A stretch of DNA of 56,750 nt from a virus. The position numbers were made by a program, and so were the translations under genes. Location of the stretch: positions 1 to 56,750 of the IMG/VR virus record IMGVR_UViG_3300009100_000003, one strand, 5' to 3'. This document shows, one piece after another, positions 33,653 through 53,493 of this stretch. Each line of letters begins with the position of its first letter. Position 1 is the first letter of the stretch. The notes under the pieces were generated by a model, which was given only the letters and a program-made list of their open reading frames with translations, ran no database searches and was not told the DNA's origin.

Positions 33653-33682
33653 GGCCCGTCAGAGCGGCGGGCGCATCTAGAG

Positions 33683-37710: not shown

Positions 37711-37777
37711 GGTGCTCTGCAGCGATTCGAGGTAGTACCATCGCCGACGCCAGCGTGACGTTCGAGGAGTCGCCGAG

Positions 37778-39814: not shown

Positions 39815-40029
39815 CGGTGCAGGTCGCGCCGAAGCCGCACGCCCTCGAGCCGGCGCTCGAGGTCCGGTGTCCCCGCTGCGGCGGGAAGCTCCTCGTCTAC
39901 GTCCCGCCGGTGACCTCGGTGTCGATCCTGATCCAGACAGTCTGCCGTCGCTGCCGAGCGATCTACGTCGCAGACTTGCGCGCAGAGGGTCCGATCGTTA
40001 GTCTGACGCCCGACAGGCCGAGCGCCTGA
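39811..40029 (+). CDS. Zinc-ribbon small protein (72 aa)
   Basis: It contains CPRCGG...CRRC. It is followed by the hairpin gcggac-agcc-gtccgc (40053-40068). Confidence 0.5.
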   Translation: MTVQVAPKPHALEPALEVRCPRCGGKLLVYVPPVTSVSILIQTVCRRCRAIYVADLRAEGPIVSLTPDRPSA

Positions 40030-40093
40030 GCGCCTCGAGCGCCTGAGCACCCGCGGACAGCCGTCCGCGCCGTAGATGCTCAGGAGGCGCGAG

Positions 40094-40657
40094 ATGCCGG
40101 CGAAGCTCACCGACCTCGACGTGGACCGGGTCGACGCGGTCGACCGTCCGGCCACCCGTCGGAAGTTCCTCATCCTCAAGGACGAGACCGGCGGCACGCC
40201 GGCATCCGAGGACCCCATCGCCCAGGCGAAGCGGCTCCTCGCCGCGGCCGCGAAGGCGGTTGGCATGATCCACGCCTCGAAGGCCGAGCACCCCGCCGAG
40301 ATGGCGGACGCGCTCAACGAGCTCGCCGAGGCGTCGGGCGCCGAGCAGCGGTTCACGAAGGCCGTCGAGAAGCCGGCCGACGAGCCAGCCAAGACGCCCG
40401 AGACGAAGGCCGAGACGCCCGCGCCGTTCGATGCTGCGGCGTTCGCAGCGGCGATCGGGCCGGCGATCGGCGATGCCGTCGTCAAGGCCCTCAAGGCGGA
40501 CCTCGAGAAGGACGAGTCGGGTGCGGTCACGCGTGGCACGCCCGAGACCGTCGTCCCTGCCTCGAAGCAGGACACCGAGCCGGTCACGAAGCGGGCCCCC
40601 CGCGGCGTCGACTTCTCGAACATCGTCTTTGGCCGGGCGTCCGGCCTGAACGGCTAG
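40094..40657 (+). CDS. Scaffolding protein
   Basis: ATG 40094 lies 7 nt after CAGGAGG. The protein is Ala/Glu/Lys-rich and helical, with a Pro/Thr/Glu/Lys linker. It sits directly upstream of the major capsid gene. Confidence 0.7.
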   Translation: MPAKLTDLDVDRVDAVDRPATRRKFLILKDETGGTPASEDPIAQAKRLLAAAAKAVGMIHASKAEHPAEMADALNELAEASGAEQRFTKAVEKPADEPAKTPETKAETPAPFDAAAFAAAIGPAIGDAVVKALKADLEKDESGAVTRGTPETVVPASKQDTEPVTKRAPRGVDFSNIVFGRASGLNG

Positions 40658-40713
40658 CGCCTCGAGCGCACTGAGTCCGCCCCGAAAAGGGCGCGACAGG
40701 AGGTACAGAACGA

Positions 40714-41712
40714 ATGACCGCGATCCTCCGTCAGTGGCTCGAGAAGGCCACCCTGACGACAGCCGACCTCGAAGGCGGCACGAACGGCGGGATGCTCTCG
40801 CCGGCGCAGGCCAAGCAGTTCATCCGCCAGGCGATCGAGGCGAGCGTCCTGCTCCCTGACGCCCGCAACGAGAGCTCGGACTCACCGAAGTTCGAGGTCC
40901 CGCGGATCAACCTCAACTCGCGCGTCCTGCGGCGCGGCGTCCAGGCGACCCGCCTCGACGATGCGGACCGCGTCAAGCCGGGCACCGGGCTCGTCGAGCT
41001 CGACACGCAGCTGTTCAAGGGCGAGATCCTCGTCGCCGACGAGTTCTTCGAGGACAACGTCGAGCGCGAGAGTGCCGCCGGCACGATCATGACCATGCTC
41101 GCCGAGGCGGTCGGTCGCGACGCCGAGGAGATCGCGATCAAGTCCGACACCGATCGGACCGGCGCCGACGACGAGACCCTCGACGCGTTCGACGGGATCA
41201 TCGCGACGCTGCAGGACGAGCTCCCGGCGAATCAGATCCTCGACGTGTCGGCCGAGACGACCGCCCAGGACATCTTCCGCCGGATGATCGAGGCGCTGCC
41301 GTCGCGGTACCGCCGAAACTACGGCGAGCTCCGGATCTACGTGCCGACGTTCCTGCGCGACACGTACCACGCCGAGCTCGGCGAGCGCCTCACGGTCCTC
41401 GGCGACTCCGCCGTCGTGGACAACCTCGCGACGCGGCTCGCCTACCGCGGCATCCCGATCGAGGAGCTCCCGCTCCTGTCGGGCGAGGACACGATCAACG
41501 GCGCATCGATCGACTACGCGACGTTCGCGTTCCTCACGCACCCCAAGAACATCATCGCGGGCTGGCATCGCCGGATCCGGATCGAGAAGTTCCGGGACCC
41601 GCGCGAGGGGGCGACCTCGTTCCTCCCGAGCCTGCGGTTCGACTGCAAGCTCGGCGAGCCCGAGCGCGCAGTCCTCGCGACGGGCGTGCCGTTCGAGGCA
41701 CCGGGCAGCTGA
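40714..41712 (+). CDS. Major capsid protein (HK97-fold type)
   Basis: 332 aa, downstream of the scaffold. Typical segments are LSPAQAKQFI..A...S.LL.....E......KF.VP....... and ..A.E.A........AL. A strong terminator follows. Confidence 0.85.
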   Translation: MTAILRQWLEKATLTTADLEGGTNGGMLSPAQAKQFIRQAIEASVLLPDARNESSDSPKFEVPRINLNSRVLRRGVQATRLDDADRVKPGTGLVELDTQLFKGEILVADEFFEDNVERESAAGTIMTMLAEAVGRDAEEIAIKSDTDRTGADDETLDAFDGIIATLQDELPANQILDVSAETTAQDIFRRMIEALPSRYRRNYGELRIYVPTFLRDTYHAELGERLTVLGDSAVVDNLATRLAYRGIPIEELPLLSGEDTINGASIDYATFAFLTHPKNIIAGWHRRIRIEKFRDPREGATSFLPSLRFDCKLGEPERAVLATGVPFEAPGS

Positions 41713-41740
41713 GCCCCGCCTCATAGCTGAGGGACGCTCA

Positions 41741-41776
41741 GAGGGGCCGGTCGTCGCGCAGAACGGCCGGCCCCTC
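41741..41776 (+). terminator. Strong GC-rich hairpin after the capsid gene
   Basis: gaggggccgg (41741-41750) pairs with ccggcccctc (41767-41776). Confidence 0.6.
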
Positions 41777-41796
41777 GACTTACTCAGAGGATCGCA

Positions 41797-42132
41797 ATGC
41801 CAGGTGTAAGGGTCCAGCATCCGACGGCTCGCAATGCCCGGTTCACGATCGCCGATGGCGATCGGCCGTACCCGAAGCCGTACACATGCACGCCGCCGGA
41901 GTTCGGCGGCTGCGGCTCGGTCCACGAGTTCAAGACGCACCACCTGAACGTCGACGAGACCGGAGCGGCGATCGTTGAGCGCGTCCTCTACACGCGGATC
42001 CGCGGGCTCCTCGAGCTTGCCGGATTCCGCGAGACGAACGAAGTCGCGAAGCCTCCGGCCATCGGCATCGGCATGGCCGCTGGACGGCCCGGTGCGTGGG
42101 GCAACGTGCCGATCATCCGCTCAACGGGCTAG
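41797..42132 (+). CDS. Hypothetical structural-module protein (111 aa)
   Basis: ATG 41797 lies 5 nt after AGAGGATCG. Confidence 0.6.
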   Translation: MPGVRVQHPTARNARFTIADGDRPYPKPYTCTPPEFGGCGSVHEFKTHHLNVDETGAAIVERVLYTRIRGLLELAGFRETNEVAKPPAIGIGMAAGRPGAWGNVPIIRSTG

Positions 42133-42144
42133 GAGGGTTCAGGC

Positions 42145-42579
42145 GTGGCGAATGCACTGTTCGAGAAGTTCCGGAACGGCCAGCTCGGTCTCGGCTCGTA
42201 CACGGTGATCGACTTCCCGTCCGACACCTTGAAGCTGGCGCTCATGGACCACGCCGGCGCCGACGGCGCGCCGGACATCGCGGCCGATGACTTCTATGAC
42301 GACGTCGACGGCTCGCTCGTCGGTGCGCTCTCATCGGCGCTCGGCAGCATCACCGTCGGCACGGTCGCCGTCGGCGTCGTGGATGCGGCCGATCTGACAC
42401 CGGCGTTCACCGGCGTGACGGGCGCCAGTGTCGAGTCGGTCGTCGCGTTGAAGGACACCGGCACGCCCTCGACCTCGCCACTGTTCGGCTACTGGGACAC
42501 GGCGACCGGGTTGCCGCTCACGCCCAACGGCGGCGACGTGAACTTCACCTTCAACGCGTCTGGCATCTTCAAGTTCTGA
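42145..42579 (+). CDS. Conserved-looking phage structural-module protein (144 aa)
   Basis: GTG 42145 lies 7 nt after AGGAGGG. The sequence is MANALFEKF...DTLKLALMD...TPNGGDVNFTFNASGIFKF. The function is unknown. Confidence 0.65.
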   Translation: MANALFEKFRNGQLGLGSYTVIDFPSDTLKLALMDHAGADGAPDIAADDFYDDVDGSLVGALSSALGSITVGTVAVGVVDAADLTPAFTGVTGASVESVVALKDTGTPSTSPLFGYWDTATGLPLTPNGGDVNFTFNASGIFKF

Positions 42580-42625
42580 TCCGCCACGGGGCCTGACCCG
42601 GCCCTCTGACGAGGGGGTCTAGACC

Positions 42626-44725
42626 GTGGCGATCTCGCTCAAGACGGCGGGTACGTGGGCCCGCGTAGTCACTGACCCGTCCTCGGTAACCATTCCCGGC
42701 TCGCCAGCAGCCGGGGATCGGATGTTCCTGTTCGCGAACTGGAAAGACTTCGCGATCACGGTCGCTGACCCGTCCGGCTGGACGCCGATCAAGAACAGTT
42801 TCGCGGACGGCTCGGTCGGCGCTGGCAACGGCACCGGCTCGGTCTCGGTCGCCGCCTGGTATCGCGACTGGGTATCGGGCGACGGCAACCCGAGCCTCAA
42901 CTGGTCCTCGGCACCGACCGAGGCGCACGCCGTCGTCATGCTCTGGCAGAAGGGCGCCAGCGACGTGTGGTCGACGCCCACCTTCGCCACGGCTGCCATC
43001 TCTGCGGCGGACCCGTTCAGCGCGACCGCCACGCAGGCCCTGACCATCGCCGATGCCTCGGTCGTGATGTGCATGATCGCGCTCCGCGACGACTCAGTCG
43101 CGATGGCGCGATCGACGAGCTCGATCGGAGACGACGGGTCGCCGGCCCTCACGTGGAACGGTAACTACGTCGAGAGCCCGGCGACGCACTTCAACTCGAC
43201 GACCGGACTCGATATGTCGGGCGACCTCGGCCATCGGTTCGTCACGACTGGCGCCGCTGGCGTCAACCTGACGATCGAGGGCAATCCGGACGCCGCTGAG
43301 ACCGGCTCCGCGTTGTGGGTCCACCAGCAACTCGCGGTCACGCAGACGATCGGCGCGATCGCGCTCCTCGATCCGACGAGCGCGGTGTACGCCCCGACGA
43401 TCACGCCCAAGAACACCTTGGGCGCCCTTGCGCTGCTCGACCCGACATCCGCGATCTACGCGCTGACCCTGACGCCAAAGAACACGCTCGGGGCTCTGCC
43501 GCTCCTCGACCCCGTGAGCGCGGTCTACACGCCAACGGTCACGCCAAAGAACACCGTAGGCGCCTTGCCGCTGCTCGATCCCTCGAGCGCCATTTACGCC
43601 CCGACCGTCACCCCAACGAACACCGTCGGTGCGCTGGCACTCTTGGATCCGAGCTCGGCGATCTATGCGCTGACTGTGGTCCCGGGAGCGGTCACCGTCG
43701 GAGCCCTGCCGCTCCTCGACCCTGTCTCGGCCACCTACGCGCCGACCATCCTTCCGATCAACACCCTCGGCGCCCTGCCACTGCTCGATCCGAGCTCCGC
43801 GATCTACGCGCCCACCGTCGTCCCGGGCGCCGTTACGGTCGGCGCGCTGCCGCTCCTCGATCCCGTGTCGGCGGTGTACGCCCCGACGATCCTGCCGCAG
43901 CCCGTGACGGTCGGGGCGCTGGATCTCCTCGACCCGACGTCCACGGTCTACGCGCTCACGGTGACCCCCGGTGCTGTCACGGTCGGCGCGCTCGCGCAGC
44001 TGGACCCGGTCTCAGCGATCTACGCCCCGACGATCGTGCCGGGTCCTGTTGGCGTGAGCCTGACGTTCGTCGATCCGGTCTCCGCGATCTTCGCGCTCAC
44101 GGTCGCGCCGGCGCCGATCACCTTCGAGCTCACCCTGCTCGACCCCGCGAGCGCGATCTATGCGCCGACGCTGCTCGCGCTGAACACCCTCGAGCTCGGG
44201 CTCATCGATCCGGTTTCGGCGGTGTACGCGCCGACAGTGGCGCCGATCAACACGTTCAGCCTGTCGCTGCTCGATCCGGTTTCGGAGGTCTACGAGCCGC
44301 TCGTCGCGAACGCCTCGGGCCCGCAGACGGTCGTGCTCGGGCTGCTCAATCCCGTGTCGGCGATCTACGCCCTGACGGTCGGAGGCGCTGCCGTCACGGT
44401 CACGCTCGATCTGCTCGATCCCGGATCCGCGATCTACGAACCGGTCCTCGCATCGTTCAACCTGATCGCGCTCGAGCAACTCGATCCGGCCGCGGCGATC
44501 TACGAGTTCGTGGTCACGCAGGGCGGCGGCGCTGCAAGCGAGGTTGTGCTCGATCTCATTGACGCCGGCGTGACGATCTTCGCGCTCGCGGTCACCCGCG
44601 GCGGCGAGATCCGGTGGGCCGACGTCGTTGTCGAGGTCGACGGGATCGAGGGGCCGGCGGGTACGATCTCCGGGATTGCCGGCCCGACCGCGACGGTGCG
44701 ACTCACGGGCGGACCAGGAGGGTAA
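42626..44725 (+). CDS. Fibre-like protein with a 240-aa N-terminal module shared with the tail fibre, 18 tandem ~23-aa repeats and a 39-aa C-terminus
   Basis: GTG 42626 follows GAGGGGG. The repeat consensus is T(V/L)GAL(P/A)LLDP(V/S/T)SA(I/V)YAPT(V/I)(T/V)P... The N-terminal motif PAAGDRMFLFANW...PSGWTPI matches modules in ORF 111-5747. Confidence 0.85.
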   Translation: MAISLKTAGTWARVVTDPSSVTIPGSPAAGDRMFLFANWKDFAITVADPSGWTPIKNSFADGSVGAGNGTGSVSVAAWYRDWVSGDGNPSLNWSSAPTEAHAVVMLWQKGASDVWSTPTFATAAISAADPFSATATQALTIADASVVMCMIALRDDSVAMARSTSSIGDDGSPALTWNGNYVESPATHFNSTTGLDMSGDLGHRFVTTGAAGVNLTIEGNPDAAETGSALWVHQQLAVTQTIGAIALLDPTSAVYAPTITPKNTLGALALLDPTSAIYALTLTPKNTLGALPLLDPVSAVYTPTVTPKNTVGALPLLDPSSAIYAPTVTPTNTVGALALLDPSSAIYALTVVPGAVTVGALPLLDPVSATYAPTILPINTLGALPLLDPSSAIYAPTVVPGAVTVGALPLLDPVSAVYAPTILPQPVTVGALDLLDPTSTVYALTVTPGAVTVGALAQLDPVSAIYAPTIVPGPVGVSLTFVDPVSAIFALTVAPAPITFELTLLDPASAIYAPTLLALNTLELGLIDPVSAVYAPTVAPINTFSLSLLDPVSEVYEPLVANASGPQTVVLGLLNPVSAIYALTVGGAAVTVTLDLLDPGSAIYEPVLASFNLIALEQLDPAAAIYEFVVTQGGGAASEVVLDLIDAGVTIFALAVTRGGEIRWADVVVEVDGIEGPAGTISGIAGPTATVRLTGGPGG
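43346..44605 (+). repeat. In-frame coding tandem repeat of 18 units, each 63-81 nt (21-27 aa)
   Basis: I counted the units directly in the translation, 420 aa in total. The units differ by many synonymous changes. Confidence 0.9.
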
Positions 44726-44727
44726 CG

Positions 44728-45084
44728 ATGACGCAGCTGATGATGGTCCGTGGCAAGACGGCGGAGTTCCTGCTCGAGCTCACCTTCGAGGGCGAGCCCG
44801 TGGTCGTCGATCCCGAGGTCGAGCTCGTGTTCACCGCGAAGCGCGCGTTCAGCGACTCGAACGCCGACGCGATCATCCACAAGACGATCGACGCGGGTAT
44901 CACGGTCGGCACGGAGCCCGGCGAGGCGACCGTGAAGATCGAGCCCGCCGACACCGTCGACCTCGACCGGCGGGTCCTGTTGTGGGACGTCGAGCTCGTC
45001 GATCCCGACGAGAACCGCTACGTCGTCGCCGGAGGCACGCTGCACGTCGATCCCGTCGTGTCGGCAACTGTCCTCGGCTCGTGA
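44728..45084 (+). CDS. Ig-like (BppU-N-like) small structural protein (118 aa)
   Basis: ATG 44728 follows CAGGAGGG. MVRGKTAEFLLELTFEGEPVVVDPEVELVFTAK...DTVDL....LWDVELVD...RYVVAGGTLHVDP resembles small Ig-like tail or baseplate domains. The call is tentative. Confidence 0.6.
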   Translation: MTQLMMVRGKTAEFLLELTFEGEPVVVDPEVELVFTAKRAFSDSNADAIIHKTIDAGITVGTEPGEATVKIEPADTVDLDRRVLLWDVELVDPDENRYVVAGGTLHVDPVVSATVLGS

Positions 45085-45216
45085 GCGCCGTCCGGGTGAC
45101 GATCCTCCCCCGGGCGGCGCTCGCCCTCCCGGAGGTCCTCGCGTCGGGGTAGGATGCACCCGAGCGACGGTGCGGAGACGGCAGCCTCCGCCTCGCCGCT
45201 CGAGGAGGATCGATCC

Positions 45217-45471
45217 GTGGGTATCGCAGTTCAGCCCTACCAGGCGTGGTACTTCGGCGCGGCCGTTCATAACGACGAGGTCGAGCTCGCGATGCGCGCC
45301 GCGACCGCCAATGATCGGCTCACGACACCGCGCCTCGTCGAGCAGGTCCAAGTCGTCGGGCTCGAGACCGAGAACGAAACGGACTTCGTGTGGGTCATCC
45401 GCGAATGGCCGTCAGGCCGCGCCGAGCGGATCGAGTCGTGGCTCGTTCGAAAGATGCCAACCGAGCCGTGA
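45217..45471 (+). CDS. Hypothetical protein (84 aa)
   Basis: GTG 45217 lies 6 nt after GAGGAGGATCG. The track start at 45154 lacks an RBS. Confidence 0.5.
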   Translation: MGIAVQPYQAWYFGAAVHNDEVELAMRAATANDRLTTPRLVEQVQVVGLETENETDFVWVIREWPSGRAERIESWLVRKMPTEP

Positions 45472-46262
45472 CGGTCACCGTCGCAATGCCGTGGCGCGGT
45501 GCGCCCGAGCTCCTGCCGCGAGCCGTTCACTCGGTGCTCGCGCAGACGGTCAAGGATCTCCGGCTCGTCGTGGTCGCAGACGGGGAGCGCATCGGTGCGC
45601 GACTGTTTCACTCGCTCACCGACGGCGGCTCGTGGGGCCCGGATGAGCGGCTCGTGCTCTACCGGATCGAGACGAGCCACGGTCCGTACTTCGCCCAGGA
45701 GGTCGTCCTCGAGGCGACGAGCTCGGAGTGGTACGCCGTCGTCGGCGCGGATGACTGGGTCGATCCTGACCATCTCGAGCGCCTGATCGCGGTCGCCGAC
45801 CCGACGGGCGCCGCAGTCCCGGGGGCGGTGTGGTGGCACGAGGACGAGATGCCGGATCCGCGATATCCATTCGTCCACGTCGGGCGCTACGAGGTCGGCG
45901 TGTATCGCCCTGAGCGGCTGCGCGCGATCGGGGGGTTCAACGTCGCCGAACGGATCGGCCAGGACTCGCTGACCCTCAAGCTCCTCGACCTCACCGGAGG
46001 TATGGCGGTCGTCGACTGGGCGACCTATCACCGCACCCGCCGGCCGGACTCGCTCACGACCTCGCCCGAGACCGGATTCCGCACACGCACAAGGAACGAG
46101 ATGCGCCGGCGCAACCGCGGCGTGTACGCCAAGGCGCAGCGGCTCGCTGCCGGTCGAGGGTTCCCGCTCAAGCTCGCACGGTGGCGCCGCTCACAGATGC
46201 CAAAGGCCCTCCGCGAGGAGGCGGCGATGCACGCGGACACGCTCCGAAAGATCATCGGATGA
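45468..46262 (+). CDS. Family-2-like (GT-A fold) glycosyltransferase
   Basis: VTVAMPWRGAPELLPRAVHSVLAQTVKDLRLVVVADG is the typical GT2 N-terminus. The DxD-like motif is VVGADDW. GTGA overlap upstream. Confidence 0.75.
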   Translation: MTVTVAMPWRGAPELLPRAVHSVLAQTVKDLRLVVVADGERIGARLFHSLTDGGSWGPDERLVLYRIETSHGPYFAQEVVLEATSSEWYAVVGADDWVDPDHLERLIAVADPTGAAVPGAVWWHEDEMPDPRYPFVHVGRYEVGVYRPERLRAIGGFNVAERIGQDSLTLKLLDLTGGMAVVDWATYHRTRRPDSLTTSPETGFRTRTRNEMRRRNRGVYAKAQRLAAGRGFPLKLARWRRSQMPKALREEAAMHADTLRKIIG

Positions 46263-46573
46263 CCGAGATCGCGACCGTCGGGCTGTCGGGGCAGTTCCTC
46301 GCTGAGAGCGGGTGGCTGCCGGCGCTCCGCCACGCACGGGAGATGATGTTCGACGTCCTCCACCACGCCGGCTACGAGGTCGAGGCCGACGGGCGGATCG
46401 TGTGGCGCCTCCGACCGACGCCGCGCGTGTTCGACGGGATCGAGCTCCTCGCGCTCTACGGCGACCGACGAGTCGAGGAGGGGCAGACGGTTCGGGCGTG
46501 GCGCCGCGACGTCCTCGCGATCCGCGCTCGACCGCACCGCCGGGAGCGTCATCCGCTCACGCCGCCGCGATGA
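46259..46573 (+). CDS. Hypothetical protein (104 aa) within the glycosylation cassette
   Basis: ATGA overlaps at both ends. Confidence 0.55.
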   Translation: MTEIATVGLSGQFLAESGWLPALRHAREMMFDVLHHAGYEVEADGRIVWRLRPTPRVFDGIELLALYGDRRVEEGQTVRAWRRDVLAIRARPHRRERHPLTPPR

Positions 46574-47310
46574 CCGCCGCTACACTGCCGCGGATGGGTA
46601 CGGGGCTATGGTTCGTCACGCCGGCGTGGCAGCGGTACGGGATCGTCGAGATCTGCCTCGAGCAGCGCCGCCGGGTGATCGAGGAGCTCGCGGCCCACGG
46701 GATCGAGGCGCACCAGGTCGTCATCGCGGACGACGAGAACCTCGACATCGCCCGCGCGGCCGGCGCCGAGATCGTCGTCCGCGACAATGAGATGGTCGGG
46801 CGGAAGTTCAACGATGGGATGGAGTACGCCGGCAAGCACGGCGCCGAATGGATCGTCCCGATCGGCTCGGACTCATGGATCGCGACCGACTACTTCCTGC
46901 CGCTCGTCAAGCCTCGCCTGACGCTGACCTCGCCAGCCTACGCCGTCGTCACGCCGACGACGCTCGCGCAGCTGACCGTCGCCCCGCTCCGGCTCGCCCA
47001 CTCCGCGGGGCCGTACGTGTTCCATCGCTCGCTCCTCGAGCCGTGCGACTTCCGTCCCTCGGCCGAGGACTCGAACATGGTCGACACGTCCACGATCGCG
47101 GGGATCGAGCGGCACACCCCGATCCGCTGGCAGGTCCGGACGCTGCACCCGTTCCAGTACGTCGGGTTCCGGATCCCGCCGATGATGACGACGTATCACT
47201 CGCTCTGGCGCAGATGGGGTGTCGCCGAGCTCAACCCGCCGTGGCCGACATTGCGGCGCTATTACCCGCGCGACCTCGTCGAGCGAGCGCGGGCGCTCAT
47301 GACAAGGTAG
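46570..47310 (+). CDS. Putative second glycosyltransferase (GT-A-like)
   Basis: WFVTPAWQRYGIVEICLEQ...VVIADDENLDIARAAGAEIVV.DN..VGRKFNDGMEYA...GAEWIVPIGSDSWI has a Rossmann-like nucleotide-sugar pattern with acidic motifs. The call is tentative. Confidence 0.65.
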   Translation: MTAATLPRMGTGLWFVTPAWQRYGIVEICLEQRRRVIEELAAHGIEAHQVVIADDENLDIARAAGAEIVVRDNEMVGRKFNDGMEYAGKHGAEWIVPIGSDSWIATDYFLPLVKPRLTLTSPAYAVVTPTTLAQLTVAPLRLAHSAGPYVFHRSLLEPCDFRPSAEDSNMVDTSTIAGIERHTPIRWQVRTLHPFQYVGFRIPPMMTTYHSLWRRWGVAELNPPWPTLRRYYPRDLVERARALMTR

Positions 47311-47323
47311 GGAGGATCGTTCC

Positions 47324-48157
47324 ATGCTCGTCGAGCTCATCCGCGCCGCGATCGAGGATCGCCTCGACGGCAACGTCGGGATCGTGGTCTCAGGCGGTCT
47401 CGACTCGTCCACCGTCGCGAGCCTCGCGCCGGAGTCGCTCCCGACGTTCACCGGCTATTACGACGTGCCCGGGTTCGATGAGCGCCGCTACGCCTCGCTC
47501 GTCGCGCATCCGGAGCATCACGAGGTCCTGATCACGCCGGCGGATTTCGTCAAGTGGTTCGATGAGATGGCCGGGTTCATCCGTCCGCCCGTCCAGGGAC
47601 CGGGCACGTTCGGTCAGTTCATGCTCGCGAAGGCGGTCTCCGACCGCTGTGAGGTCGCCCTCTCGGGCGAGGGCTCCGACGAACTGTTCGGCGGCTACGC
47701 GCGCACCCTCCTCGCCGCTGGCGAGCCGATGCCCGACGGGTACGAGAACTACTCGCCGCCGGCCGACTACCCGGTGGGTGATCTCGCTGCGGCGCTGCAG
47801 TACGACCTCGACCGGTTGCCGGATCTGCTCGCGGTCGATGATCAGATGACGGGCGCCTGGGGCGTCGAGGCGCGCGCTCCGTTCACCGATGAGCGGATCG
47901 TTGACTACGCGCTCGCCCTCGAGCCGATCGAGCGAGTCGGCAAGCGCCACCTGCGCCAGGCGGTCCGCGGCATCGTGCCGGACGCGATCATCGACCGCAC
48001 CGACAAGATGGGGTTCCCGGCACCGTTCGTCCTGTGGGCGCAGGAGGACCCGGTCCGCTCGTTCGTCCTCGAGCGGATCGGCTACGTCCCGGATCCCGAG
48101 CGTCCGTGGGACCGCGCATGGTGGTACGCGATGGTCGAAGCGGCCGGTGCGGATTGA
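47324..48157 (+). CDS. Asparagine-synthetase-like PP-loop ATP pyrophosphatase (AsnB C-terminal domain only, no glutaminase domain)
   Basis: The PP-loop is VGIVVSGGLDSSTVASL and the AsnB signature is LSGEGSDELFGGY. ATG 47324 follows GGGAGGATCG. Confidence 0.8.
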   Translation: MLVELIRAAIEDRLDGNVGIVVSGGLDSSTVASLAPESLPTFTGYYDVPGFDERRYASLVAHPEHHEVLITPADFVKWFDEMAGFIRPPVQGPGTFGQFMLAKAVSDRCEVALSGEGSDELFGGYARTLLAAGEPMPDGYENYSPPADYPVGDLAAALQYDLDRLPDLLAVDDQMTGAWGVEARAPFTDERIVDYALALEPIERVGKRHLRQAVRGIVPDAIIDRTDKMGFPAPFVLWAQEDPVRSFVLERIGYVPDPERPWDRAWWYAMVEAAGAD

Positions 48158-49244
48158 CTTTCTCGCTCGTGAGCGCCACTTCGCCGATCACCTAGCGCCG
48201 GTCGCTCGAGCACTCCGAGCCCGAGGCATCGAGGGGCGGTTCATCGTCGAGCCGGCGATCGCGTGGCGCGCAGTGGAGCTCGGGTTCACACCCGATCAAG
48301 GCGCGAGCGATCCCTCGGTTCCGATCGTCCTCGCCTCGTACGGCGATCTCAAGGTCGCGCGCAAGGCCGGCCGGACGAAGATCGCGCTCCTGCAGCACGG
48401 CATCGGCCAGAGTTACGGCGGGGATGCTCGGGTCGCGGAGGGACCGAGCTACTCGGGCGGCCGTGACAATGGCGATGTCGGACTGTTCCTCTGCCCCAAC
48501 GAGCACTCCGCGAACCGCTGGCGCGAGGCGTACCCCGCTGCACGAGTCGAGATCGTCGGCTGCCCGAAGCTCGACACCCTCCCCGCTCGGGAGCCGGGGC
48601 CCGGGCCGGTGATCGCGTTCACCTTCCACTGGGACGCCCACGTGGTGAACGAGACCCGCTCAGGGTTTCGGCAGTTCTCCTCGGCGATCGTCGCAGCGAA
48701 GCGCCAGGGCTGGACGGTCCTCGGGCACGGCCGCCCGCGGCTCCTCACGGACTACCGCACCGGTGCCGTCCGGTTCTATGCCCGCTTCGGGATCGAATGC
48801 ACGACCGACTTCGACGAGGTTTGCCGGCGGGCGGATCTGCTCGTGTTCGACAACACGAGCTCGGGCTACGAGTTCGCCGCGACCGGGCGGCCGGTGCTCG
48901 TGCTCGACCCGATCCAGTACCGCCCGCTCGTCACGCACGGGCTCCGGTTTTGGGAGGCCGCAGACGTCGGGGTCCGGGTCAAGCGCCGCGAGCAGGTCGT
49001 GTCGGGGATCATCGAAGCTCTCGCCGATGCACCGGAGCGCCAGGCCGCGCGCGAGGCGGCGCTCTCGATCGTCTACGGCTACCGCACGGGAGCCTCAGAG
49101 CGGGCGGCAGACGTCATCGTGGACTGGGCGTCGCGTATCATCCACCCGAGGATCGCTTGCGGAGGTCTAGGCGATGGTGGAGCTCGGCACCCTAGAGGGG
49201 CTCAAGGACAAGCTCGGCATCGCGGCCGCGGACCGGACGCGTGA
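48147..49244 (+). CDS. TagF/TagB-like CDP-glycerol (polyol-phosphate) transferase
   Basis: Motifs are LLQHGIGQSY, PVIAFTFHWD (compare the YAPTwR motif) and DFDEVCRRADLLVFDNTSSGYEFAATGRPVLVLDPIQY (compare the D.LITDYSS..fDf....P motif). The 3' end overlaps the next gene by 71 nt. Confidence 0.7.
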   Translation: MRIDFLARERHFADHLAPVARALRARGIEGRFIVEPAIAWRAVELGFTPDQGASDPSVPIVLASYGDLKVARKAGRTKIALLQHGIGQSYGGDARVAEGPSYSGGRDNGDVGLFLCPNEHSANRWREAYPAARVEIVGCPKLDTLPAREPGPGPVIAFTFHWDAHVVNETRSGFRQFSSAIVAAKRQGWTVLGHGRPRLLTDYRTGAVRFYARFGIECTTDFDEVCRRADLLVFDNTSSGYEFAATGRPVLVLDPIQYRPLVTHGLRFWEAADVGVRVKRREQVVSGIIEALADAPERQAAREAALSIVYGYRTGASERAADVIVDWASRIIHPRIACGGLGDGGARHPRGAQGQARHRGRGPDA

Positions 49245-49836
49245 CCGCGAGCTCGAGGTCCTCCTGCTCGCAGCCCGGCGGTACGTGCTCCGCACCGTCC
49301 GCTACGCCGAGGCGGGCGAGATCTCAGGCGAGATCCACGAGAACGTCCGCGAGGGCGAGGCGATCTTCGCCGGCGTCCGCCCGCTCGATCCCGACGTCGA
49401 CCTTATCGTCGAGGGCCGGCGGTTCGGGACGGAGACTTGGACGACACTGACCGCCGAGGTCGTCGACCCGGTCGAGGGGCGGATCCGGATCGTCAACGCT
49501 GCGGACTCGCCGTGGCCCCCTGTCTCGGCCAGCTGGTCGTCGTGGCCGTGGGGCCGGCGGCAGCGCCAGATCTGGCCGCTCGTCCGGCTCGGCTACGCGA
49601 ACCTCGCCGCTCCGCTCGACGAGCTCGAGGATCTCGGTCTAGTCGTCGAGGTTCTCGCGGCGCACTGGGACCGCGAGAGTTCCGGCAGTTCCGGCGTGCT
49701 CGTCGCGCAGACGGCCGGCATCGTGTCCGAGCAGTATTCGGCGGGCTCGTCCGGGGCGCTCGGAACGGTGCCGAATGCGGTCGGGCTCATCCTTGCGACC
49801 TATGGCGGGCTCGGGCGGGCGCGCCTGTCGCGGTGA
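49174..49836 (+). CDS. Head-tail connector / adaptor (gp6-like)
   Basis: ATG 49174 follows GGAGG. The N-terminus LEGLKDKLGIAAADRTRDRELEVLLLAARRYV is typical of head-tail connector proteins. Confidence 0.65.
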   Translation: MVELGTLEGLKDKLGIAAADRTRDRELEVLLLAARRYVLRTVRYAEAGEISGEIHENVREGEAIFAGVRPLDPDVDLIVEGRRFGTETWTTLTAEVVDPVEGRIRIVNAADSPWPPVSASWSSWPWGRRQRQIWPLVRLGYANLAAPLDELEDLGLVVEVLAAHWDRESSGSSGVLVAQTAGIVSEQYSAGSSGALGTVPNAVGLILATYGGLGRARLSR

Positions 49837-50165
49837 CGCACGGGCACGATGCGACCTGCACGGATCTGCCGAGCGAGTCGGGGATCGGTGTCTGCATCCG
49901 GAGCATCGATCACGGACCCGGACAGATGGTGTCGGGCGAGACGTTCGATCGGCACCCCGCAGGGTTCATCATCGCCCACGACGTACCCGGCGGAGGCGAA
50001 CGCTGCGAGGGCGCACTCACGATCGACGAGGCGCACTTCGGGCCGGAGCGATGGACCGTATCGGGGAGCCTCGAGGCGGGCGATCTCACCCTCACGCCAT
50101 CGGTTGCGTGTACCGTGCATCCGACGTTCCATGCCCACGTGACGAACGGACGGTGGACCGGATGA
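49833..50165 (+). CDS. Cys/His-rich small protein (DUF6527-like)
   Basis: GTGA overlap. It contains ...LTPSVACTVHPTFHAHVTNGRW. Confidence 0.5.
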   Translation: MTHGHDATCTDLPSESGIGVCIRSIDHGPGQMVSGETFDRHPAGFIIAHDVPGGGERCEGALTIDEAHFGPERWTVSGSLEAGDLTLTPSVACTVHPTFHAHVTNGRWTG

Positions 50166-50536
50166 CGCTCCCGCGAATCGCGCAACGGATCGACCTCGTC
50201 GCGACGCGCGTGCTCGAGTCGAACACGGAAGATGCGTGGGGCCGGAAGGTCCCGGCCGCGCCTGTCACGGTCGCGGCATGGCGGGGCGACCTGCAGCCTC
50301 GCAAGGTCCGCGGCGGATCCGGCGAGATCCTGACCTCGACCGGGCAGGGCGCGGCGCTCTCGGAATACATCGTCCTCGCGCCGCTCGGGCTCGGCATCCT
50401 GACCGGAGACGTCATCCAGCGTGCGACCGATGACGGGCTGCGCTACCAGGTCAACCGCGTCGACCCGATCGGCGAGGGCCTCCGGCTCGCCCACGCGGAG
50501 ATCGCCTGCGACCTCGTCACGTCGGGCGTTCCCTGA
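50162..50536 (+). CDS. Head-closure / head-tail joining protein
   Basis: ATGA overlap. It is 124 aa and lies between the connector and the gp10-like neck protein. Confidence 0.6.
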   Translation: MTLPRIAQRIDLVATRVLESNTEDAWGRKVPAAPVTVAAWRGDLQPRKVRGGSGEILTSTGQGAALSEYIVLAPLGLGILTGDVIQRATDDGLRYQVNRVDPIGEGLRLAHAEIACDLVTSGVP

Positions 50537-50539
50537 CCG

Positions 50540-51094
50540 ATGGCCGGCAACGCGAGCCGGCGCATTGCGAGCGCGGCGGGCCTGCGGGGCGACGTCGCGT
50601 TCCGCTGGCGCCCCGGAGGACAGCGCGACCTGCGGCTCGGTGTGGCGTACGGGCTGCTCGAGGCCGGGTACTACGGCGAGGACCGCATGAAGGCCGACGC
50701 TCCGGTGCGCGGAGGGCACCGTTCGTTCCTGACGGGCGCGCATCTCGCGGGCCCGCTCAACGTGTCGGACTTCCCGGGGACTCGTCGAGCGAAGGTCACC
50801 GTCGGCGGAACGCTGCGGCGAAGCATCCACGCGATCGTGTACCTCGACGGCGTTCCGATCCCCGGCTCGCGTCGGGTGGACGAGAACCAGGTCCCGATCC
50901 CGAACTACGCGACCAGCGGGGCGCACGTCATCCTCGTGCTCGGCACAAACTCCGGATACGGCGGTTGGGTCGATGGCGGCACGGCTAAGATGCCGGCGCG
51001 GCCGTTCACGATGCCGGCCGTGGCGCAGATGTCGAAGGCCCTCGGGAGCCTCATGCGATCCGGAGCGGACGGGTATTGGAGGACGCGATCATGA
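50540..51094 (+). CDS. HK97 gp10-like neck / tail-completion protein
   Basis: It has the C-terminal GTAKMPARPFTMPA motif characteristic of the gp10 family. Confidence 0.65.
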   Translation: MAGNASRRIASAAGLRGDVAFRWRPGGQRDLRLGVAYGLLEAGYYGEDRMKADAPVRGGHRSFLTGAHLAGPLNVSDFPGTRRAKVTVGGTLRRSIHAIVYLDGVPIPGSRRVDENQVPIPNYATSGAHVILVLGTNSGYGGWVDGGTAKMPARPFTMPAVAQMSKALGSLMRSGADGYWRTRS

Positions 51095-51192
51095 ACCTCG
51101 CAGAGGCGGCATCGATGGTGCTCCCGTGGGTGATCGCCATCGCCCTGATCGCGACCGGCGTGCTCATCCGGAGGCGTCGCAATGACGGTTGA
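51091..51192 (+). CDS. Tiny single-pass membrane ORF (33 aa)
   Basis: The product is MNLAEAASMVLPWVIAIALIATGVLIRRRRNDG*. ATGA overlap upstream. It is below the ORF-track cutoff. Confidence 0.3.
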   Translation: MNLAEAASMVLPWVIAIALIATGVLIRRRRNDG

Positions 51193-51616
51193 GATGGTGG
51201 ATCCCACAGGCCGTATCGTCGTCGAGCTCCGCGAGGCTGCGGCCGACTGGCCGGCGCCGCTCACGAACTACCGGATCGCGCCCGGCGAGCTCGCCGGCAC
51301 GGACGTTCCGAAGGATGGCTCGGCACCGCTGGCGATCGTGGTCCGCCGTGCTCCGACCCTCCGCTTCCGCCGGCTGCCGCTGGCGCGGTTCGACTACCGG
51401 CTCGACTGCTACCACCCCGACGCGCGCATCGCGGCGCAGATCGCGGGTCTCGCCTCGGACGCCCTGCACGACCGGGGGCCGCGCGTGGCGAGCGGCATCG
51501 GGATCTTCGCCTCGTACGATGCCGGCGGATCCGGCGGACTCGTCGAGCCCGACACGAAGTGGCCGGTCGAGCGCGTCCTCGTTCGGCTCACGGTCGCAGC
51601 GCAGGCGATCGCGTAG
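51182..51616 (+). CDS. Tail terminator-like protein
   Basis: 144 aa, immediately before the major tail gene region. The call is positional. Confidence 0.6.
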   Translation: MTVEMVDPTGRIVVELREAAADWPAPLTNYRIAPGELAGTDVPKDGSAPLAIVVRRAPTLRFRRLPLARFDYRLDCYHPDARIAAQIAGLASDALHDRGPRVASGIGIFASYDAGGSGGLVEPDTKWPVERVLVRLTVAAQAIA

Positions 51617-51794
51617 CGTCTAGTCGCGACCTGACGGACGGTGTAGCCTGTCGCTCGACCGGAAACGGCCGGCCATCGCCCAGGCGATGACCGCGTGAAG
51701 TCGTCCGAGCCCGAGGCGGGCAAGGCGACGAGACCATCGCCGGGAGCGCCGCGGAGCGCCGGAGGCACGTTGAACGTGTCAGGAGGCGCGCGAG

Positions 51795-52610
51795 ATGGGC
51801 GTTACCAGCACGACGGCCGAGGAGATCTCGGTCGGCGCGGGCGAGGTTTACTACCAGGACGACGAGGGCGTCTGGCAGCCGGTCGGGGCGACGAAGGACA
51901 ATAACGTCTGGCGTTGCGTCACCGAGTACGCCGACATCAACCTCAACGGCGTGATCGGCCCGATCAAGGGCATCGACTACATCACCGAACAGCTGGCCGA
52001 GCTCGAGGTCTCGGTCGCGCAGATGAGCGCCGAGAAGATCGCGCTCATGATCCCGGGGGCGACCTCGACCGTGCAGACAGCGGCCGACAATGGCGGCGCC
52101 TCGACGACCCTCGCGGTCGCGACGACCGCGGGTCAGTGGGAGGGGGTCAAGCTCGCCGCGGTGGCCGGGCTCGCCGTCGGCGAGTACGTCCGGATCGGTG
52201 CCGATGGTTCGATCGAGTGGCGCACCCTGACGCGGGTCGGCACCCTCGGCGCCGGCGGCACCGGTGTCGATCTCGACTTCCCGCTGCAGCTGGCGCACGA
52301 CGTCGGCGATGACGTCGTCGAGACCGACGGCGCGGGTCTCACGATCATCACGCCTCCGATCATCCGCCGGCTCCCGAGCTCGGCGTATCACAACTGGCGT
52401 CTCGACGTCCCGGGGCTCGACGGTCGGCTGGTGCGGTTCCTGATCCTCAACGGGATCATGACCGAGAACGCCGAGGTCGAGGCGGCGGACGACGACGCGG
52501 CCGCGCCGCGTCTCACGATCCAGTCGCGCATCGATCCCGCGGATCCGAACACCGGATCGTGGGCGATCCATCGCGTCCCGACCTTCGGGGCTGAGCCGGT
52601 CGGCTCCTGA
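51795..52610 (+). CDS. Major tail (tube) protein
   Basis: ATG 51795 lies 8 nt after AGGAGG. It is 271 aa and directly precedes the G/G-T chaperone pair and the tape measure. Confidence 0.8.
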   Translation: MGVTSTTAEEISVGAGEVYYQDDEGVWQPVGATKDNNVWRCVTEYADINLNGVIGPIKGIDYITEQLAELEVSVAQMSAEKIALMIPGATSTVQTAADNGGASTTLAVATTAGQWEGVKLAAVAGLAVGEYVRIGADGSIEWRTLTRVGTLGAGGTGVDLDFPLQLAHDVGDDVVETDGAGLTIITPPIIRRLPSSAYHNWRLDVPGLDGRLVRFLILNGIMTENAEVEAADDDAAAPRLTIQSRIDPADPNTGSWAIHRVPTFGAEPVGS

Positions 52611-52645
52611 CCCTCGCATCCACTGAGCCCCGAGGAGGGCCTGAT

Positions 52646-53215
52646 ATGGAACCGATCGAGCGCGCCGGCACGCGGACAGATGACGAGGTCGCATTCGGCA
52701 TCATCCCGTGCCGGTTCTCATCCGAGGTCCGCTACATGCGGACGCTCAAGATCAACGCCGCGAAGGAATGGAAGGCGCTCCTCGGGCGCAAGCTCGCCGG
52801 CACGATCGCCGAGTACGACGTCCCGGCGATGCGGCCAGGTGGCGGCTCGAAGATGCTCGAGTCGCTCATCGGGCTCGGGATGCTCGGCACCGACACCGTC
52901 CTCGAGCTCGTCGTCGCGTACGACAAGCGCGGCACGCTCGGCGGCTCGGAGTGGCTCGGCGAGAACGCCGACGATGCCGAGCTCTATGCCGTGTTCCGGT
53001 CGATCTTCGCGGTCCACTTCCCTTTCGTGAGGGACGTCCTGAGCGCGATGGGCACGCTGGCGGGACTGCTCGCCAGCGGGGCCCCGGAGGCGGTGGCGGA
53101 GGCGCTGACTCCACAGGGCGTCGAGTCTCCTCCTCCGAGCTCGTCGAGTGGTGCCTCGCGAACTGGGGCCTCGGCCCCGACACGATCGCGACCACGCTCG
53201 ACGAAGCGCAACTAG
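52646..53215 (+). CDS. Tail assembly chaperone (G form)
   Basis: ATG 52646 follows GAGGAGGG. The gene lies between the tube and tape-measure genes. The last ~25 residues (SSSSGASRTGASAPTRSRPRSTKRN) look non-coding, which fits coding moving into the -1 frame. Confidence 0.75.
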   Translation: MEPIERAGTRTDDEVAFGIIPCRFSSEVRYMRTLKINAAKEWKALLGRKLAGTIAEYDVPAMRPGGGSKMLESLIGLGMLGTDTVLELVVAYDKRGTLGGSEWLGENADDAELYAVFRSIFAVHFPFVRDVLSAMGTLAGLLASGAPEAVAEALTPQGVESPPPSSSSGASRTGASAPTRSRPRSTKRN

Positions 53216-53481: not shown

Positions 53482-53493
53482 GCTCGTGATCCC

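Follow-up and report, generated by a model that had tools for sequence, protein, structure and literature searches.

What would a set of glycosyltransferase-like and amidoligase-like enzymes modify if they are encoded inside the head-tail operon of a phage? Such a cassette of five plus-strand genes (g1 to g5, Table 1) is found in an uncultured, high-GC phage, for which we analysed a stretch of 56,750 nt (in the following, the window). A first-pass annotation had proposed that the cassette adds a teichoic-acid-like, possibly amidated, decoration to virion proteins or, alternatively, remodels wall polymers of the host. All five genes it described are present, as are all motifs it quoted (VTVTVAMPWRG, GADDW, SGGLDSS, GEGSDELFGGY, HG, FTFHWD and LVFDNTSSGYEF). 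Its picture of five overlapping genes holds for g1/g2 and g2/g3 (4 nt each) as well as g4/g5 (11 nt), while g3 and g4 are separated by 13 nt.

Table 1. Features of the window discussed in the text; Gly-Ser tags are predicted acceptors.
Feature	Positions	Strand	Length	Description
Major capsid protein	40714-41712	+	332 aa	HK97-like; ends ...GVPFEAPGS, last ~8 residues form the Gly-Ser tag
Repeat protein	42626-44725	+	699 aa	Ends ...LTGGPGG, no Ser tag; lies beside the cassette rather than being a demonstrated member
p118	44728-45084	+	118 aa	Ends ...SATVLGS; Gly-Ser tag
Orphan protein	45154-45471	+	105 aa	Stop overlaps g1 start by 4 nt
g1	45468-46262	+	264 aa	GT2-family (GT-A) glycosyltransferase, soluble
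g2	46259-46573	+	104 aa	Orphan protein
g3	46570-47310	+	246 aa	Divergent GT-A-fold transferase (from model)
g4	47324-48157	+	277 aa	Stand-alone asparagine-synthetase-type PP-loop ATP pyrophosphatase (putative amidoligase) without glutaminase domain
g5	48147-49244	+	365 aa	Compact Glyphos_transf-type (TagF/TagB-like) transferase with GT-B fold
g6	49174-49836	+		First gene past the cassette; putative head-tail connector by position only
Major tail protein	51795-52610	+		Ends ...TFGAEPVGS; Gly-Ser tag
Distal-tail-position protein	56157-56678	+		Directly after tape measure; ends ...YWTLGGS; Gly-Ser tag

The 71-nt overlap of g5 with g6 is real at the level of open reading frames. It lies within the last 33 residues of g5, and since this tail (residues 333-365) is predicted to be disordered and is not conserved in 58 homologues, the overlap is a late stop codon of g5 rather than a functional overlap. 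The earlier naming of g6 as head-tail connector goes back to its position; neither g6 nor the 105-aa orphan upstream of g1 has a Pfam or PHROG match or a homologue among the related loci. No promoter-like or terminator-like sites were found in 40000-53000, which is weakly consistent with the single late transcript in which the cassette was thought to be embedded.

With regard to the individual enzymes, the GT2 call for g1 was confirmed by Pfam's Glycos_transf_2 (PF00535, E 3.7e-12, 46.9 bits, cut-off 23.3), and g1 homologues are present in 20 related loci. The same holds for the AsnB-like assignment of g4, i.e., its match to Asn_synthase (PF00733) reaches an E-value of 1.3e-50, with an alignment covering human ASNS residues 241-444, and at least 1002 homologues of about 279 aa show 65-79% identity. 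Although g3 matches no profile of Pfam, PHROG or NCBIfam, its AF2 model (pLDDT 96.4) has a GT-A fold, with Leptospira GT and TarP/TarS as best Foldseek matches (E about 2e-7, TM 0.54-0.60), and the motifs ADDEN and GSDSW are conserved (382 homologues). Judged by this model, g3 is a divergent GT-A-fold transferase, as had been proposed. JGI places its start at 46594, which gives a protein of 238 aa. For g2, no family match was found in Pfam, PHROG or NCBIfam, and just one other 50%-identity cluster exists among 1.84 billion representatives.

A candidate target is suggested by the C-termini of virion proteins. Four proteins of the window (capsid, p118, major tail and distal-tail protein) have a short C-terminal extension that finishes with Gly-Ser-COOH. 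The capsid aligns with the c20 capsid family, where P326, F327 and S332 are invariant, while four cultured homologues (30-34% identity) end about 8 residues earlier without the tag. p118 matches PHROG 1084 (function unknown), and its homologues (cluster 36) are located upstream of a TagF-like gene in 7/8 loci and are Ser-ended in 5/8. The major tail gene, upstream of a chaperone-position and a tape-measure gene (PhageMin_Tail), and the distal-tail gene encode members of clusters c8 and c26, respectively.

We then compared C-termini across 85 loci with a g5 homologue. Here, Ser is the last residue in 56/59 capsids, mostly as [G/A]S, with five separate BLAST clusters represented, and Ser ends also prevail in the tail families (c8 20/20, c41 7/7, c37 7/8, c18 10/12, c26 8/11), while portals and enzymes of these loci lack the pattern. 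As a control, we used one capsid family from IMG/VR chosen regardless of cassettes, restricted to loci flanked by 4 kb or more in both directions. Ser-ended capsids were found with glycosylation genes in 20 loci and without in 1, capsids lacking the terminal Ser in 0 and 11, respectively (Fisher p = 9e-8, uncorrected for phylogeny, with many of the loci related). The tag-less capsids are nested among the tagged ones by identity, and one tail family changes in step, i.e., it ends ...FGS with a cassette and ...PPAP without. Exceptions are locus L144, which has a Ser-ended capsid and no detected glycosylation gene, and a Vibrio phage with no known cassette and a capsid ending in ...IAS. The cassettes and the [G/A]-Ser ends of capsid and tail proteins appear to co-vary, which is strong new support for the proposed decoration of virion proteins.

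The tags also have a counterpart in cultured phages. C-terminal glycans on the capsid and tail-tube proteins of Che8 and Corndog are reported in two papers that cite Freeman 2023 (PMC12619734, PMC12363180). Like the tagged proteins of the window, these phage proteins end in Ser (capsid and major tail protein: ...KTGS and ...SDGS in Che8, ...LVGS and ...KGDS in Corndog). Furthermore, 44/85 TagF-like loci encode a member of a GT-A family with homology to Corndog gp37 (1e-32) and Che8 gp109 (1.5e-29). The window, in contrast, encodes neither this gp109/gp37 family nor the GT25 of gp110/gp38. As far as sequence comparison can tell, it most likely encodes a variant of the system by which a few mycobacteriophages are known to glycosylate their virions.

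We thus favour, with a probability of roughly 0.7, a phage-encoded glycosylation of virion proteins that is co-expressed with the head and tail genes and targets their C-terminal Ser tags. The enzymes would act in the infected cytoplasm on the four tagged proteins. g5 probably acts on the tag itself, since a TagF-like enzyme recurs as the core of these cassettes and some phages have no other recognisable transferase. In the minimal systems Rctr41k, L004 and L182 it is the one transferase recognised, and the capsid and major tail proteins still carry the terminal [G/A]-Ser tag; in Rctr41k and L182, the distal-tail-position protein ends in GS, too. g1 and g3 may afterwards extend or decorate the g5 product with sugars, and g4 may amidate a carboxyl group (that of a uronic acid is the most plausible) with ammonia or an amine. 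g4 is not tied to the tag, since cassettes with a g4-type gene but no TagF-like gene (L087, L088, L170) accompany capsids that are not Ser-ended. The virion would thereby acquire a surface coat comparable to the glycan shield of mycobacteriophage Che8.

What g5 transfers depends on its assignment, for which the evidence is divided. g5 is a compact GT-B protein with an ordered core of residues 1-332, and at the level of Pfam families it is TagF/TagB-like, as the first-pass annotation stated. Glyphos_transf is the sole Pfam family matched by all 59/59 homologues (best E-value 2.2e-12, vs. 9.7e-6 for Glyco_trans_1_4 with 15/59), while the window copy itself scores 20-20.9 bits, just under the gathering cut-off of 22.1. 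Some members are annotated as CDP-glycerol glycerophosphotransferase family by NCBI and JGI. On this basis, the donor would most likely be CDP-activated and a polyol-phosphate transferred. Alternatively, g5 could be an ordinary GT-B glycosyltransferase using an NDP-sugar (e.g., a protein O-hexosyl- or heptosyl-transferase), which retains the Ser-tag glycosylation of virions but nothing teichoic-acid-like. We consider this a serious competitor, if somewhat short of an even chance. In Foldseek, GT1 sugar transferases (GtfA, GtfD, CalG1) and UDP-GlcNAc 2-epimerases rank above the TagF-like polymerase Cps3D (rank 43), a family-profile search against PDB sequences did not reach TagF, and g5 has no NCBIfam match.

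Gene neighbourhoods bear on both donors. Of 103 TagF-like loci, 17 encode a small TagD/RfaE-II-like nucleotidyltransferase, whose gene adjoins or overlaps the TagF-like one in 5-6. In several loci, a cytidylyltransferase-like gene (PF01467) overlaps or abuts the TagF-like gene as in a TagD-TagF pair. However, the scores of these nucleotidyltransferases against heptose-1-P adenylyltransferase equal or slightly exceed those against TagD, and the window encodes neither a cytidylyltransferase nor a TagD/RfaE-II-like nucleotidyltransferase. Cellular homologues in Halalkalibacter are located in polysaccharide-type clusters, which speaks for the TagF-like assignment, while one homologue on a provirus-like contig from a haloarchaeal bin speaks for the NDP-sugar: to our knowledge, CDP-glycerol teichoic chemistry is not expected there. 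Polyol-phosphate transfer by g5 and the amidoligase role of g4, i.e., the teichoic-acid-like, amidated product proposed earlier, are therefore parts of the reading that we infer.

The 699-aa repeat protein had been put forward as an obvious candidate acceptor; its Thr/Ser-containing repeats would then be O-glycosylated as in a serine-rich adhesin. It is encoded 0.7 kb upstream of g1, all of its tandem repeats (about 18, with a length of 23-24 aa or 69-72 nt) have conserved Ser/Thr (LLDPxSAxYAPTxTP), and SdgB-type repeat glycosyltransferases are among the distant GT-B fold matches of g5. We nevertheless regard it as an unlikely main acceptor. It lacks the C-terminal tag and has no Pfam or PHROG match. 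A single weak homologue occurs among 165 related loci, i.e., essentially none beside 100+ related cassettes, whose conserved partners are capsid and tail proteins. Even L030, closest to the window by capsid (65% identity), has a TagF-like gene and no repeat protein.

The usual substrates of TagF-, TarP/TarS- and WbpS-like enzymes are polymers of the wall or surface. The cassette might thus remodel the host envelope late in infection or in lysogeny, e.g., for superinfection block or release, by acting on teichoic acids or on arabinogalactan-like or capsular glycans, with virion proteins not being the target. This would fit the TarP/TarS-like fold matches of g3, the cellular g5 relatives in polysaccharide clusters and a membrane GT87 gene elsewhere on the minus strand, which could be a conversion gene. 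We find it quite improbable, given that none of the five products contains a hydrophobic or transmembrane-like segment, g5 consists of a ~330-aa GT-B core only, and the genes are co-oriented and tightly packed within the head-tail operon; the joint gain and loss of Ser tags and cassettes would be left unexplained.

Hypermodification of phage DNA is hardly credible: in Bacillus phage SP-15, a cluster with a CDP-glycerol glycerophosphotransferase (gene 151) is proposed to equip DHPU bases with a phosphodiester-linked sugar (PMC5977210), but SP-15 was not detected by g5 tblastn, the fold match is weak (TM 0.34), Pfam found among 50 further window ORFs a DNA methylase, RecT, YqaJ and PolX but no hydroxymethylase, thymidylate-synthase-like, DNA-base kinase or DNA glycosyltransferase gene, and the protein tags would go unexplained.

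Finally, a TagF-like gene in a structural operon had been considered unusual. This is true for cultured phages, where tblastn found 1 match in 50,697 records, but not for metagenomes, in which this arrangement is common. The g5 family comprises at least 884 protein clusters and 233 IMG/VR loci located in phage structural modules, e.g., adjoining capsid, portal or protease genes in L001-L006.

From position 40076 (scaffold gene) to the end of the gene after the tape measure, every gene of the window, a 56.75-kb metagenomic (JGI) phage contig with ~70% G+C, lies on the plus strand in tight packing, and neither promoter-like nor terminator-like sites were found between 40000 and 53000. The five cassette genes (g1 to g5) that the first-pass annotation had placed in this run are all real. 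Its description of them as overlapping holds for three junctions (4 nt each at g1/g2 and g2/g3, 11 nt at g4/g5), whereas a 13-nt gap separates g3 from g4. The proposed overlap between g5 and its downstream neighbour g6 (71 nt) is present but confined to the last 33 residues of g5, which are missing or unconserved in 58 homologues and predicted to be disordered. Among 50,697 phage records, megablast found none that matches the region.

Features of the window that are discussed in the text, with the C-terminal ending of the encoded protein where relevant
Feature	Positions	Strand	Assignment	Ending
Contig ends (circular permutation)	1-5747 and 53482-56750			
Minus-strand block	~30.8-35.4 kb	-	between portal-region genes and protease	
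GT87-matching ORF	30827-31681	-	284 aa; PF09594, E 6e-06	
LPD29 ORF	33017-33658	-	213 aa; large polyvalent protein associated	...VKGGS
Prohead protease	37736-39298	+	Peptidase_S78_2/XkdF-like, residues 412-517	
Capsid				...PFEAPGS
Repeat protein	42626-44725	+	699 aa	
p118	44728-45084	+	118 aa, just upstream of the cassette	...ATVLGS
g1	45468-46262	+	GT2 glycosyltransferase	
g2	46259-46573	+	orphan	
g3	46570-47310 (JGI start 46594)	+	GT-A fold	
g4	47324-48157	+	asparagine-synthetase domain	
g5	48147-49244	+	330-residue GT-B core	
g6	49174-49836	+	putative head-tail connector, from position	
Major tail protein				...AEPVGS
Tape measure	53482-56232	+		
Protein after tape measure (distal tail)	ends 56678	+		...WTLGGS

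With regard to the first three genes, g1 scores 46.9 bits against the Glycos_transf_2 profile of Pfam (PF00535; gathering cut-off 23.3, E 3.7e-12), which bears out its assignment as a GT2-type glycosyltransferase, and it carries a putative acidic DxD-type motif (VVGADDWVDPD) after the central strand. For g2, only one other 50%-identity cluster was found among 1.84 billion representatives. Searches of Pfam, PHROG and NCBIfam gave no match for g3, which has 382 homologues. Its suggested GT-A-like nature is supported without any curated profile, i.e., the AlphaFold (AF2) model (pLDDT 96.4) is a single Rossmann-like GT-A fold for which Foldseek finds a Leptospira GT, TarP, TarS, GlcAT-S and BcsA (E 1.7e-7 to 1e-5). 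The g3 profile reaches PDB sequences only at E 0.27 (to a GT2), and hhalign relates the g3 and g1 families with 22% probability. An invariant G-S-D-S-W of g3 aligns with S-D-D-Y-V-D of the GT2 structure 3bcv, offering a single Asp and not DxD, and a second invariant motif (A-D-D-E-N) lies upstream of it. TarP and TarS, which are GT-A wall-teichoic-acid glycosyltransferases, are among the best structural matches (E ~2e-7, TM ~0.6). However, g3 shares only 10-16% identity with them, has no Pfam match, shows GSDSW at the putative DxD position and lacks the trimerisation and C-terminal domains; the likeness is one of general GT-A fold. None of g1 to g5 contains a hydrophobic segment.

The fourth gene was annotated as AsnB-like without glutaminase, and both parts of this claim hold. 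It scores 173.5 bits against PF00733 (Asn_synthase; cut-off 21, E 1.3e-50), shows the motifs SGGLDSS (PP-loop) and SGEGSDEL and aligns to residues 241-444 of human ASNS, i.e., to the synthetase domain. Unlike in AsnB, the N-terminal glutaminase domain is missing, and g4 therefore cannot use glutamine on its own. This is also reflected in the comparison with TIGR01536, where the match begins at position 239 of the 517-position profile and reaches 136 bits against a cut-off of 267, such that the equivalog is not assigned. At least 1002 homologues were found, all of ~279 aa and 65-79% identical, while tblastn of g4 against the 50,697 phage records gave unannotated fragments only. These motifs are shared with AsnB-like sugar amidotransferases such as WbpS of the Pseudomonas O6 antigen. 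In glycan cassettes of four other phages, the g4 homologue directly follows an SDR epimerase/dehydratase, which looks like a nucleotide-sugar tailoring pair, and capsids are not Ser-ended where capsid-adjacent cassettes combine a g4 homologue with an SDR gene. Taken together, this speaks for a sugar carboxylate, and not the Ser tag described below, as the group on which g4 acts. In L087, L088 and L170, where the capsid-adjacent cassette contains a g4 homologue and lacks a TagF-like gene, the capsid and putative major tail proteins end not in Ser but in similar short motifs such as ...GLIP, ...NLVP, ...ATIP and ...SALP; this type of cassette could have a C-terminal tag of its own.

The g5 family comprises at least 884 protein clusters and 233 confirmed IMG/VR loci, and its genes adjoin capsid, portal or protease genes in every context examined; within a prophage on a 215-kb contig, for instance, the homologue is directly flanked by the capsid gene on one side and the connector gene on the other. 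In a tblastn search with g5, a single record out of 50,697 from cultured or deposited phages was hit, Virus Rctr41k. We called stop-to-stop ORFs in 85 phage loci with a g5 homologue (TagF-like loci) and clustered them. The most frequent companions are a GT-A family with Glyco_transf_7C signature (44 loci), Rhamno_transf (25) and g1-type GT2 enzymes (18), followed by a small PF01467 nucleotidyltransferase and a polysaccharide pyruvyl transferase (13 each), methyltransferases (11), another GT-B and the g3 family (9 each). Even in the locus closest by capsid (L030, 65% identity), a GT7C-like enzyme and a methyltransferase, together with the TagF-like gene, replace g1 to g4. The composition of the cassettes is mosaic, with the TagF-like gene as the recurring element, which is also the sole glyco gene detected by models in 5/34 loci with long flanks. 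Literature searches, in which Freeman et al. 2023 was covered through papers citing it, turned up no account of capsid-adjacent phage cassettes with TagF-like or AsnB-like genes.

The plausible structural genes of the window that end in Gly-Ser are those of the capsid, p118, the major tail protein and the protein after the tape measure. The same kind of short C-terminal extension ending in [G/A]-Ser recurs in the 85 TagF-like loci, where 56/59 capsids from five separate BLAST clusters are Ser-ended, nearly always as ...[G/A]S. Several tail families behave alike: Ser-ended are 20/20 members of c8 (major tail), 7/7, 7/8 and 10/12 of the tail families c41, c37 and c18, and 8/11 of c26 (the gene after the tape measure), where the single-linkage clusters include some alternative-frame ORFs and counts are approximate. 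Portals, terminases and cassette enzymes of these loci are without the pattern. The tag likewise occurs in loci without any recognised transferase besides the TagF-like one, namely in Rctr41k (...VAEGS on the capsid, ...DLPGS on the major tail protein and ...EVEGS on the protein after the tape measure), in the contig L182 (...AAAGS, tail ...ASAGS and ...SGSGS, respectively) and on capsid and tail of the prophage L004.

Presence of the tag co-varies with presence of the cassette. As a control, 80 IMG/VR loci of one capsid family were fetched by capsid homology alone, with a family member as first sequence, as the window capsid is too divergent to confirm matches. Considering loci flanked by 4 kb or more of sequence on each side, Ser-ended capsids are accompanied by glyco genes in 20 cases and lack them in one, while the respective numbers for other capsids are 0 and 11 (Fisher p = 9e-8, a statistic that ignores shared ancestry). 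Tag-less capsids are nested by identity among tagged ones (e.g., one ending ...AVLAPAAP that is 58% identical to the query), and a tail family of the control phages changes from ...FGS to ...PPAP alongside the capsid. Homologues of the window capsid in four cultured phages are missing the extension of ~8 residues.

The enzyme classes, their position within the operon, the tags and the co-variation of tags and cassette are best explained by a cassette for virion-protein glycosylation. The soluble enzymes would modify, in the cytoplasm, the C-terminal Ser carried by the capsid, p118, tail-tube and distal-tail proteins. Here, the TagF-like enzyme probably acts directly on the tag because it is the only recognised transferase in the minimal systems, while g1 and g3 would add sugars and g4 would make a uronamide from a sugar carboxylate, using ammonia or an amine. 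The virion decoration suggested by the first-pass annotation is thus likely for the tagged capsid and tail proteins but not for the upstream repeat protein, which had been named as an obvious acceptor: it is untagged, and related cassettes do not have it as a conserved neighbour. This protein consists of ~18 tandem repeats of 23-24 aa (consensus ~GALxLLDPxSAxYAPTxxPxNTx), matches no family and has almost no homologues in related phages.

A known system for comparison is given by gp108-110 of mycobacteriophage Che8 and gp35-38 of Corndog. According to PMC12619734 and PMC12363180, which cite Freeman et al. 2023, the capsid and tail-tube subunits of Che8, Corndog and Myrna are glycosylated at the C-terminus by the phages themselves, and both gp110 (Che8) and gp38 (Corndog) are reported to be essential. 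In the sequences themselves, the capsids end in ...NKTGS (Che8) and ...PLVGS (Corndog) and the major tail proteins in ...YSDGS and ...IKGDS. At this level, the window resembles both phages in that capsid and major tail protein end in ...GS (...DS for the Corndog tail); it also shares soluble phage-encoded glycosyltransferases, which Corndog likewise encodes inside the structural module. Many sister cassettes have a clear homologue of Che8 gp109/Corndog gp37. The GT7C-like family, present in 44 of the 85 loci with a TagF-like gene, shows homology to Corndog gp37 (1e-32) and Che8 gp109 (1.5e-29), and the gp109/gp37 family was found in 53-57 related loci. A GT25 (gp110/gp38) homologue, on the other hand, was found in none of the related loci. 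Lacking both of these families, the window does not reproduce the Che8 system. BLASTP of g1 to g5 against the Che8/Corndog enzymes gave no significant co-linear similarity. Che8 and Corndog in turn lack a TagF-like GT-B and an AsnB-like amidoligase, and the window carries the tag on a distal-tail protein and p118 as well. As far as sequences tell, the window is a variant that shares the acceptor logic of the Che8 system and uses other enzymes.

To what extent g5 is TagF/TagB-like depends on the level of comparison. Its AF2 model (pLDDT 92.4) shows the two-Rossmann GT-B fold, as all Foldseek matches are GT-B and the fold is shared with TagF/TagB/TarF and Cps3D (PDB 8qoy). All 59 homologues scanned match Glyphos_transf (PF04464; E below 0.01, best E 2.2e-12), which is the best and sole universal Pfam match of the family and covers the C-terminal nucleotide-binding domain, whereas Glyco_trans_1_4 is matched by only 15/59. 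The window copy itself stays below threshold (20.0-20.9 bits, cut-off 22.1, C-terminal third only). Structurally, g5 is no nearer to TagF-like entries than to other GT-B enzymes: Foldseek lists GT1 transferases and UDP-GlcNAc 2-epimerases first and the TagF-like polymerase Cps3D at rank 43, and searches against PDB and BFVD gave generic GT-B matches only and no close viral structure. Family profile (E up to 1) and single-sequence searches against PDB sequences did not reach TagF, and no NCBIfam match was found for g5 or its homologues. As fold search and PDB profile do not single out TagF, the proposed label is justified at the Pfam-family level only. TagF has a catalytic histidine pair, as seen in the S. 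epidermidis structure. The g5 family has several invariant His, including an N-domain HG and a His right after the first C-domain strand; the invariant positions in the family alignment are H15, H84 (HG), H161, H194 and H264. In contrast to TagF, g5 has only ~330 aa and no membrane-association region, and its predicted acceptor is a protein C-terminus instead of a lipid-linked or polymer glycan.

The donor of g5 is probably a CDP-polyol because of the Pfam family and of the occasional pairing with a TagD-like nucleotidyltransferase, as known for TagF-type systems; such a PF01467 gene is present in 17/103 TagF-like loci and overlaps or abuts the TagF-like gene in 5-6 of those. An NDP-sugar donor is a serious alternative, since the linked nucleotidyltransferases score as well against heptose-1-P adenylyltransferase (RfaE-II) as against TagD and none is present in the window. 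The teichoic-acid-like, amidated chemistry that had been suggested is accordingly plausible but unproven: the Pfam family speaks for it, the fold ranking, the sub-threshold g5 and the missing nucleotidyltransferase against it. Going further, g5 might put glycerol- or ribitol-phosphate, as single unit or polymerised chain, directly on the C-terminal Ser hydroxyl of capsid, tail-tube and distal-tail proteins, giving a protein-anchored teichoic-acid-like anionic coat that would here be glycosylated and amidated; we consider this specific form rather unlikely.

Far less probable still is a remodelling of host wall polymers late in infection, also raised in the first-pass annotation, which leaves the Ser tags unexplained and would have to be carried out by five soluble proteins. 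DNA hypermodification was rejected, as Pfam scans of 50 further window ORFs found no gene in support of it. The precedent is Bacillus phage SP-15, whose TagF-like gene 151 is proposed to act in DNA base hypermodification (PMC5977210). While both phages carry a TagF-family gene, gene 151 sits in a carbohydrate-metabolism island and not in a structural module, and tblastn of g5 detected no relation to SP-15.

The real interest of virion-protein glycosylation by such cassettes is the size of the family and its simple acceptor code. Demonstrated cases of virion glycosylation are, to our knowledge, confined to a few mycobacteriophages, in which it protects the particles against antibodies. The window indicates that it is far wider, extending to uncultured soil and sediment phages with a large family of capsid-adjacent cassettes, which are built around an uncharacterised TagF-like transferase and travel with a Gly-Ser tag on capsid, tail-tube and distal-tail proteins. 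If confirmed, glycosylated virions would be predictable from sequence alone, a portable tag-plus-enzyme pair would be available for decorating phage particles or other proteins, and teichoic-acid-type chemistry on virus surfaces would become testable, which bears on adsorption, stability and immune recognition of therapeutic phages. Should polyol-phosphate indeed be attached to Ser, viruses would have a type of post-translational modification that has not been described before, and [G/A]-Ser-COOH plus the enzyme would predict coated virions for thousands of uncultured phages of Actinomycetota and Chloroflexota.

With few exceptions, matches in genome collections lie on MAG contigs, which come from Limnocylindrales and other Chloroflexota and from Acidimicrobiia, Solirubrobacterales and other Actinomycetota. 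A genome scan for a cultured lysogen returned only MAG contigs and Halalkalibacter loci. The latter, from Halalkalibacter sp. (L179) and H. hemicellulosilyticus JCM 9152 (L189), were rejected as prophages since they resemble cellular polysaccharide clusters. Both cultured matches to g5 (475-aa protein, 34-47% identity over the best matching segment) have an N-terminal extension, lie in polysaccharide-type clusters of 35% GC and adjoin a GT2; the JCM 9152 copy is interrupted by stops. These genes may be cellular counterparts of the phage family or represent its ancestors. L182 is a provirus-like contig (72% GC) with a TagF-like gene that was binned to a Natronococcus MAG, such that either the g5 family extends to archaeal viruses or the contig is mis-binned. 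Many portals of cluster c2 (L002-L086) carry a C-terminal, zinc-ribbon-like CxRCK-type motif and end in ...AA or ...VA.

Within the window, the contig is circularly permuted relative to the tail module, and an ORF of 1,878-1,914 aa begins at its very start. A second contig (56,769 bp) also carries the g4 protein sequence. GT87 is a membrane mannosyltransferase family typical of Actinomycetota; the matching ORF in the minus-strand block could serve in conversion of the host envelope and gives a hint that the host is actinobacterial. The LPD29 ORF also ends in GGS, which may be coincidence since it lies outside the structural operon. Finally, the N-terminus of the prohead protease is fused to a 2',5'-RNA-ligase/2H-phosphoesterase-like domain.
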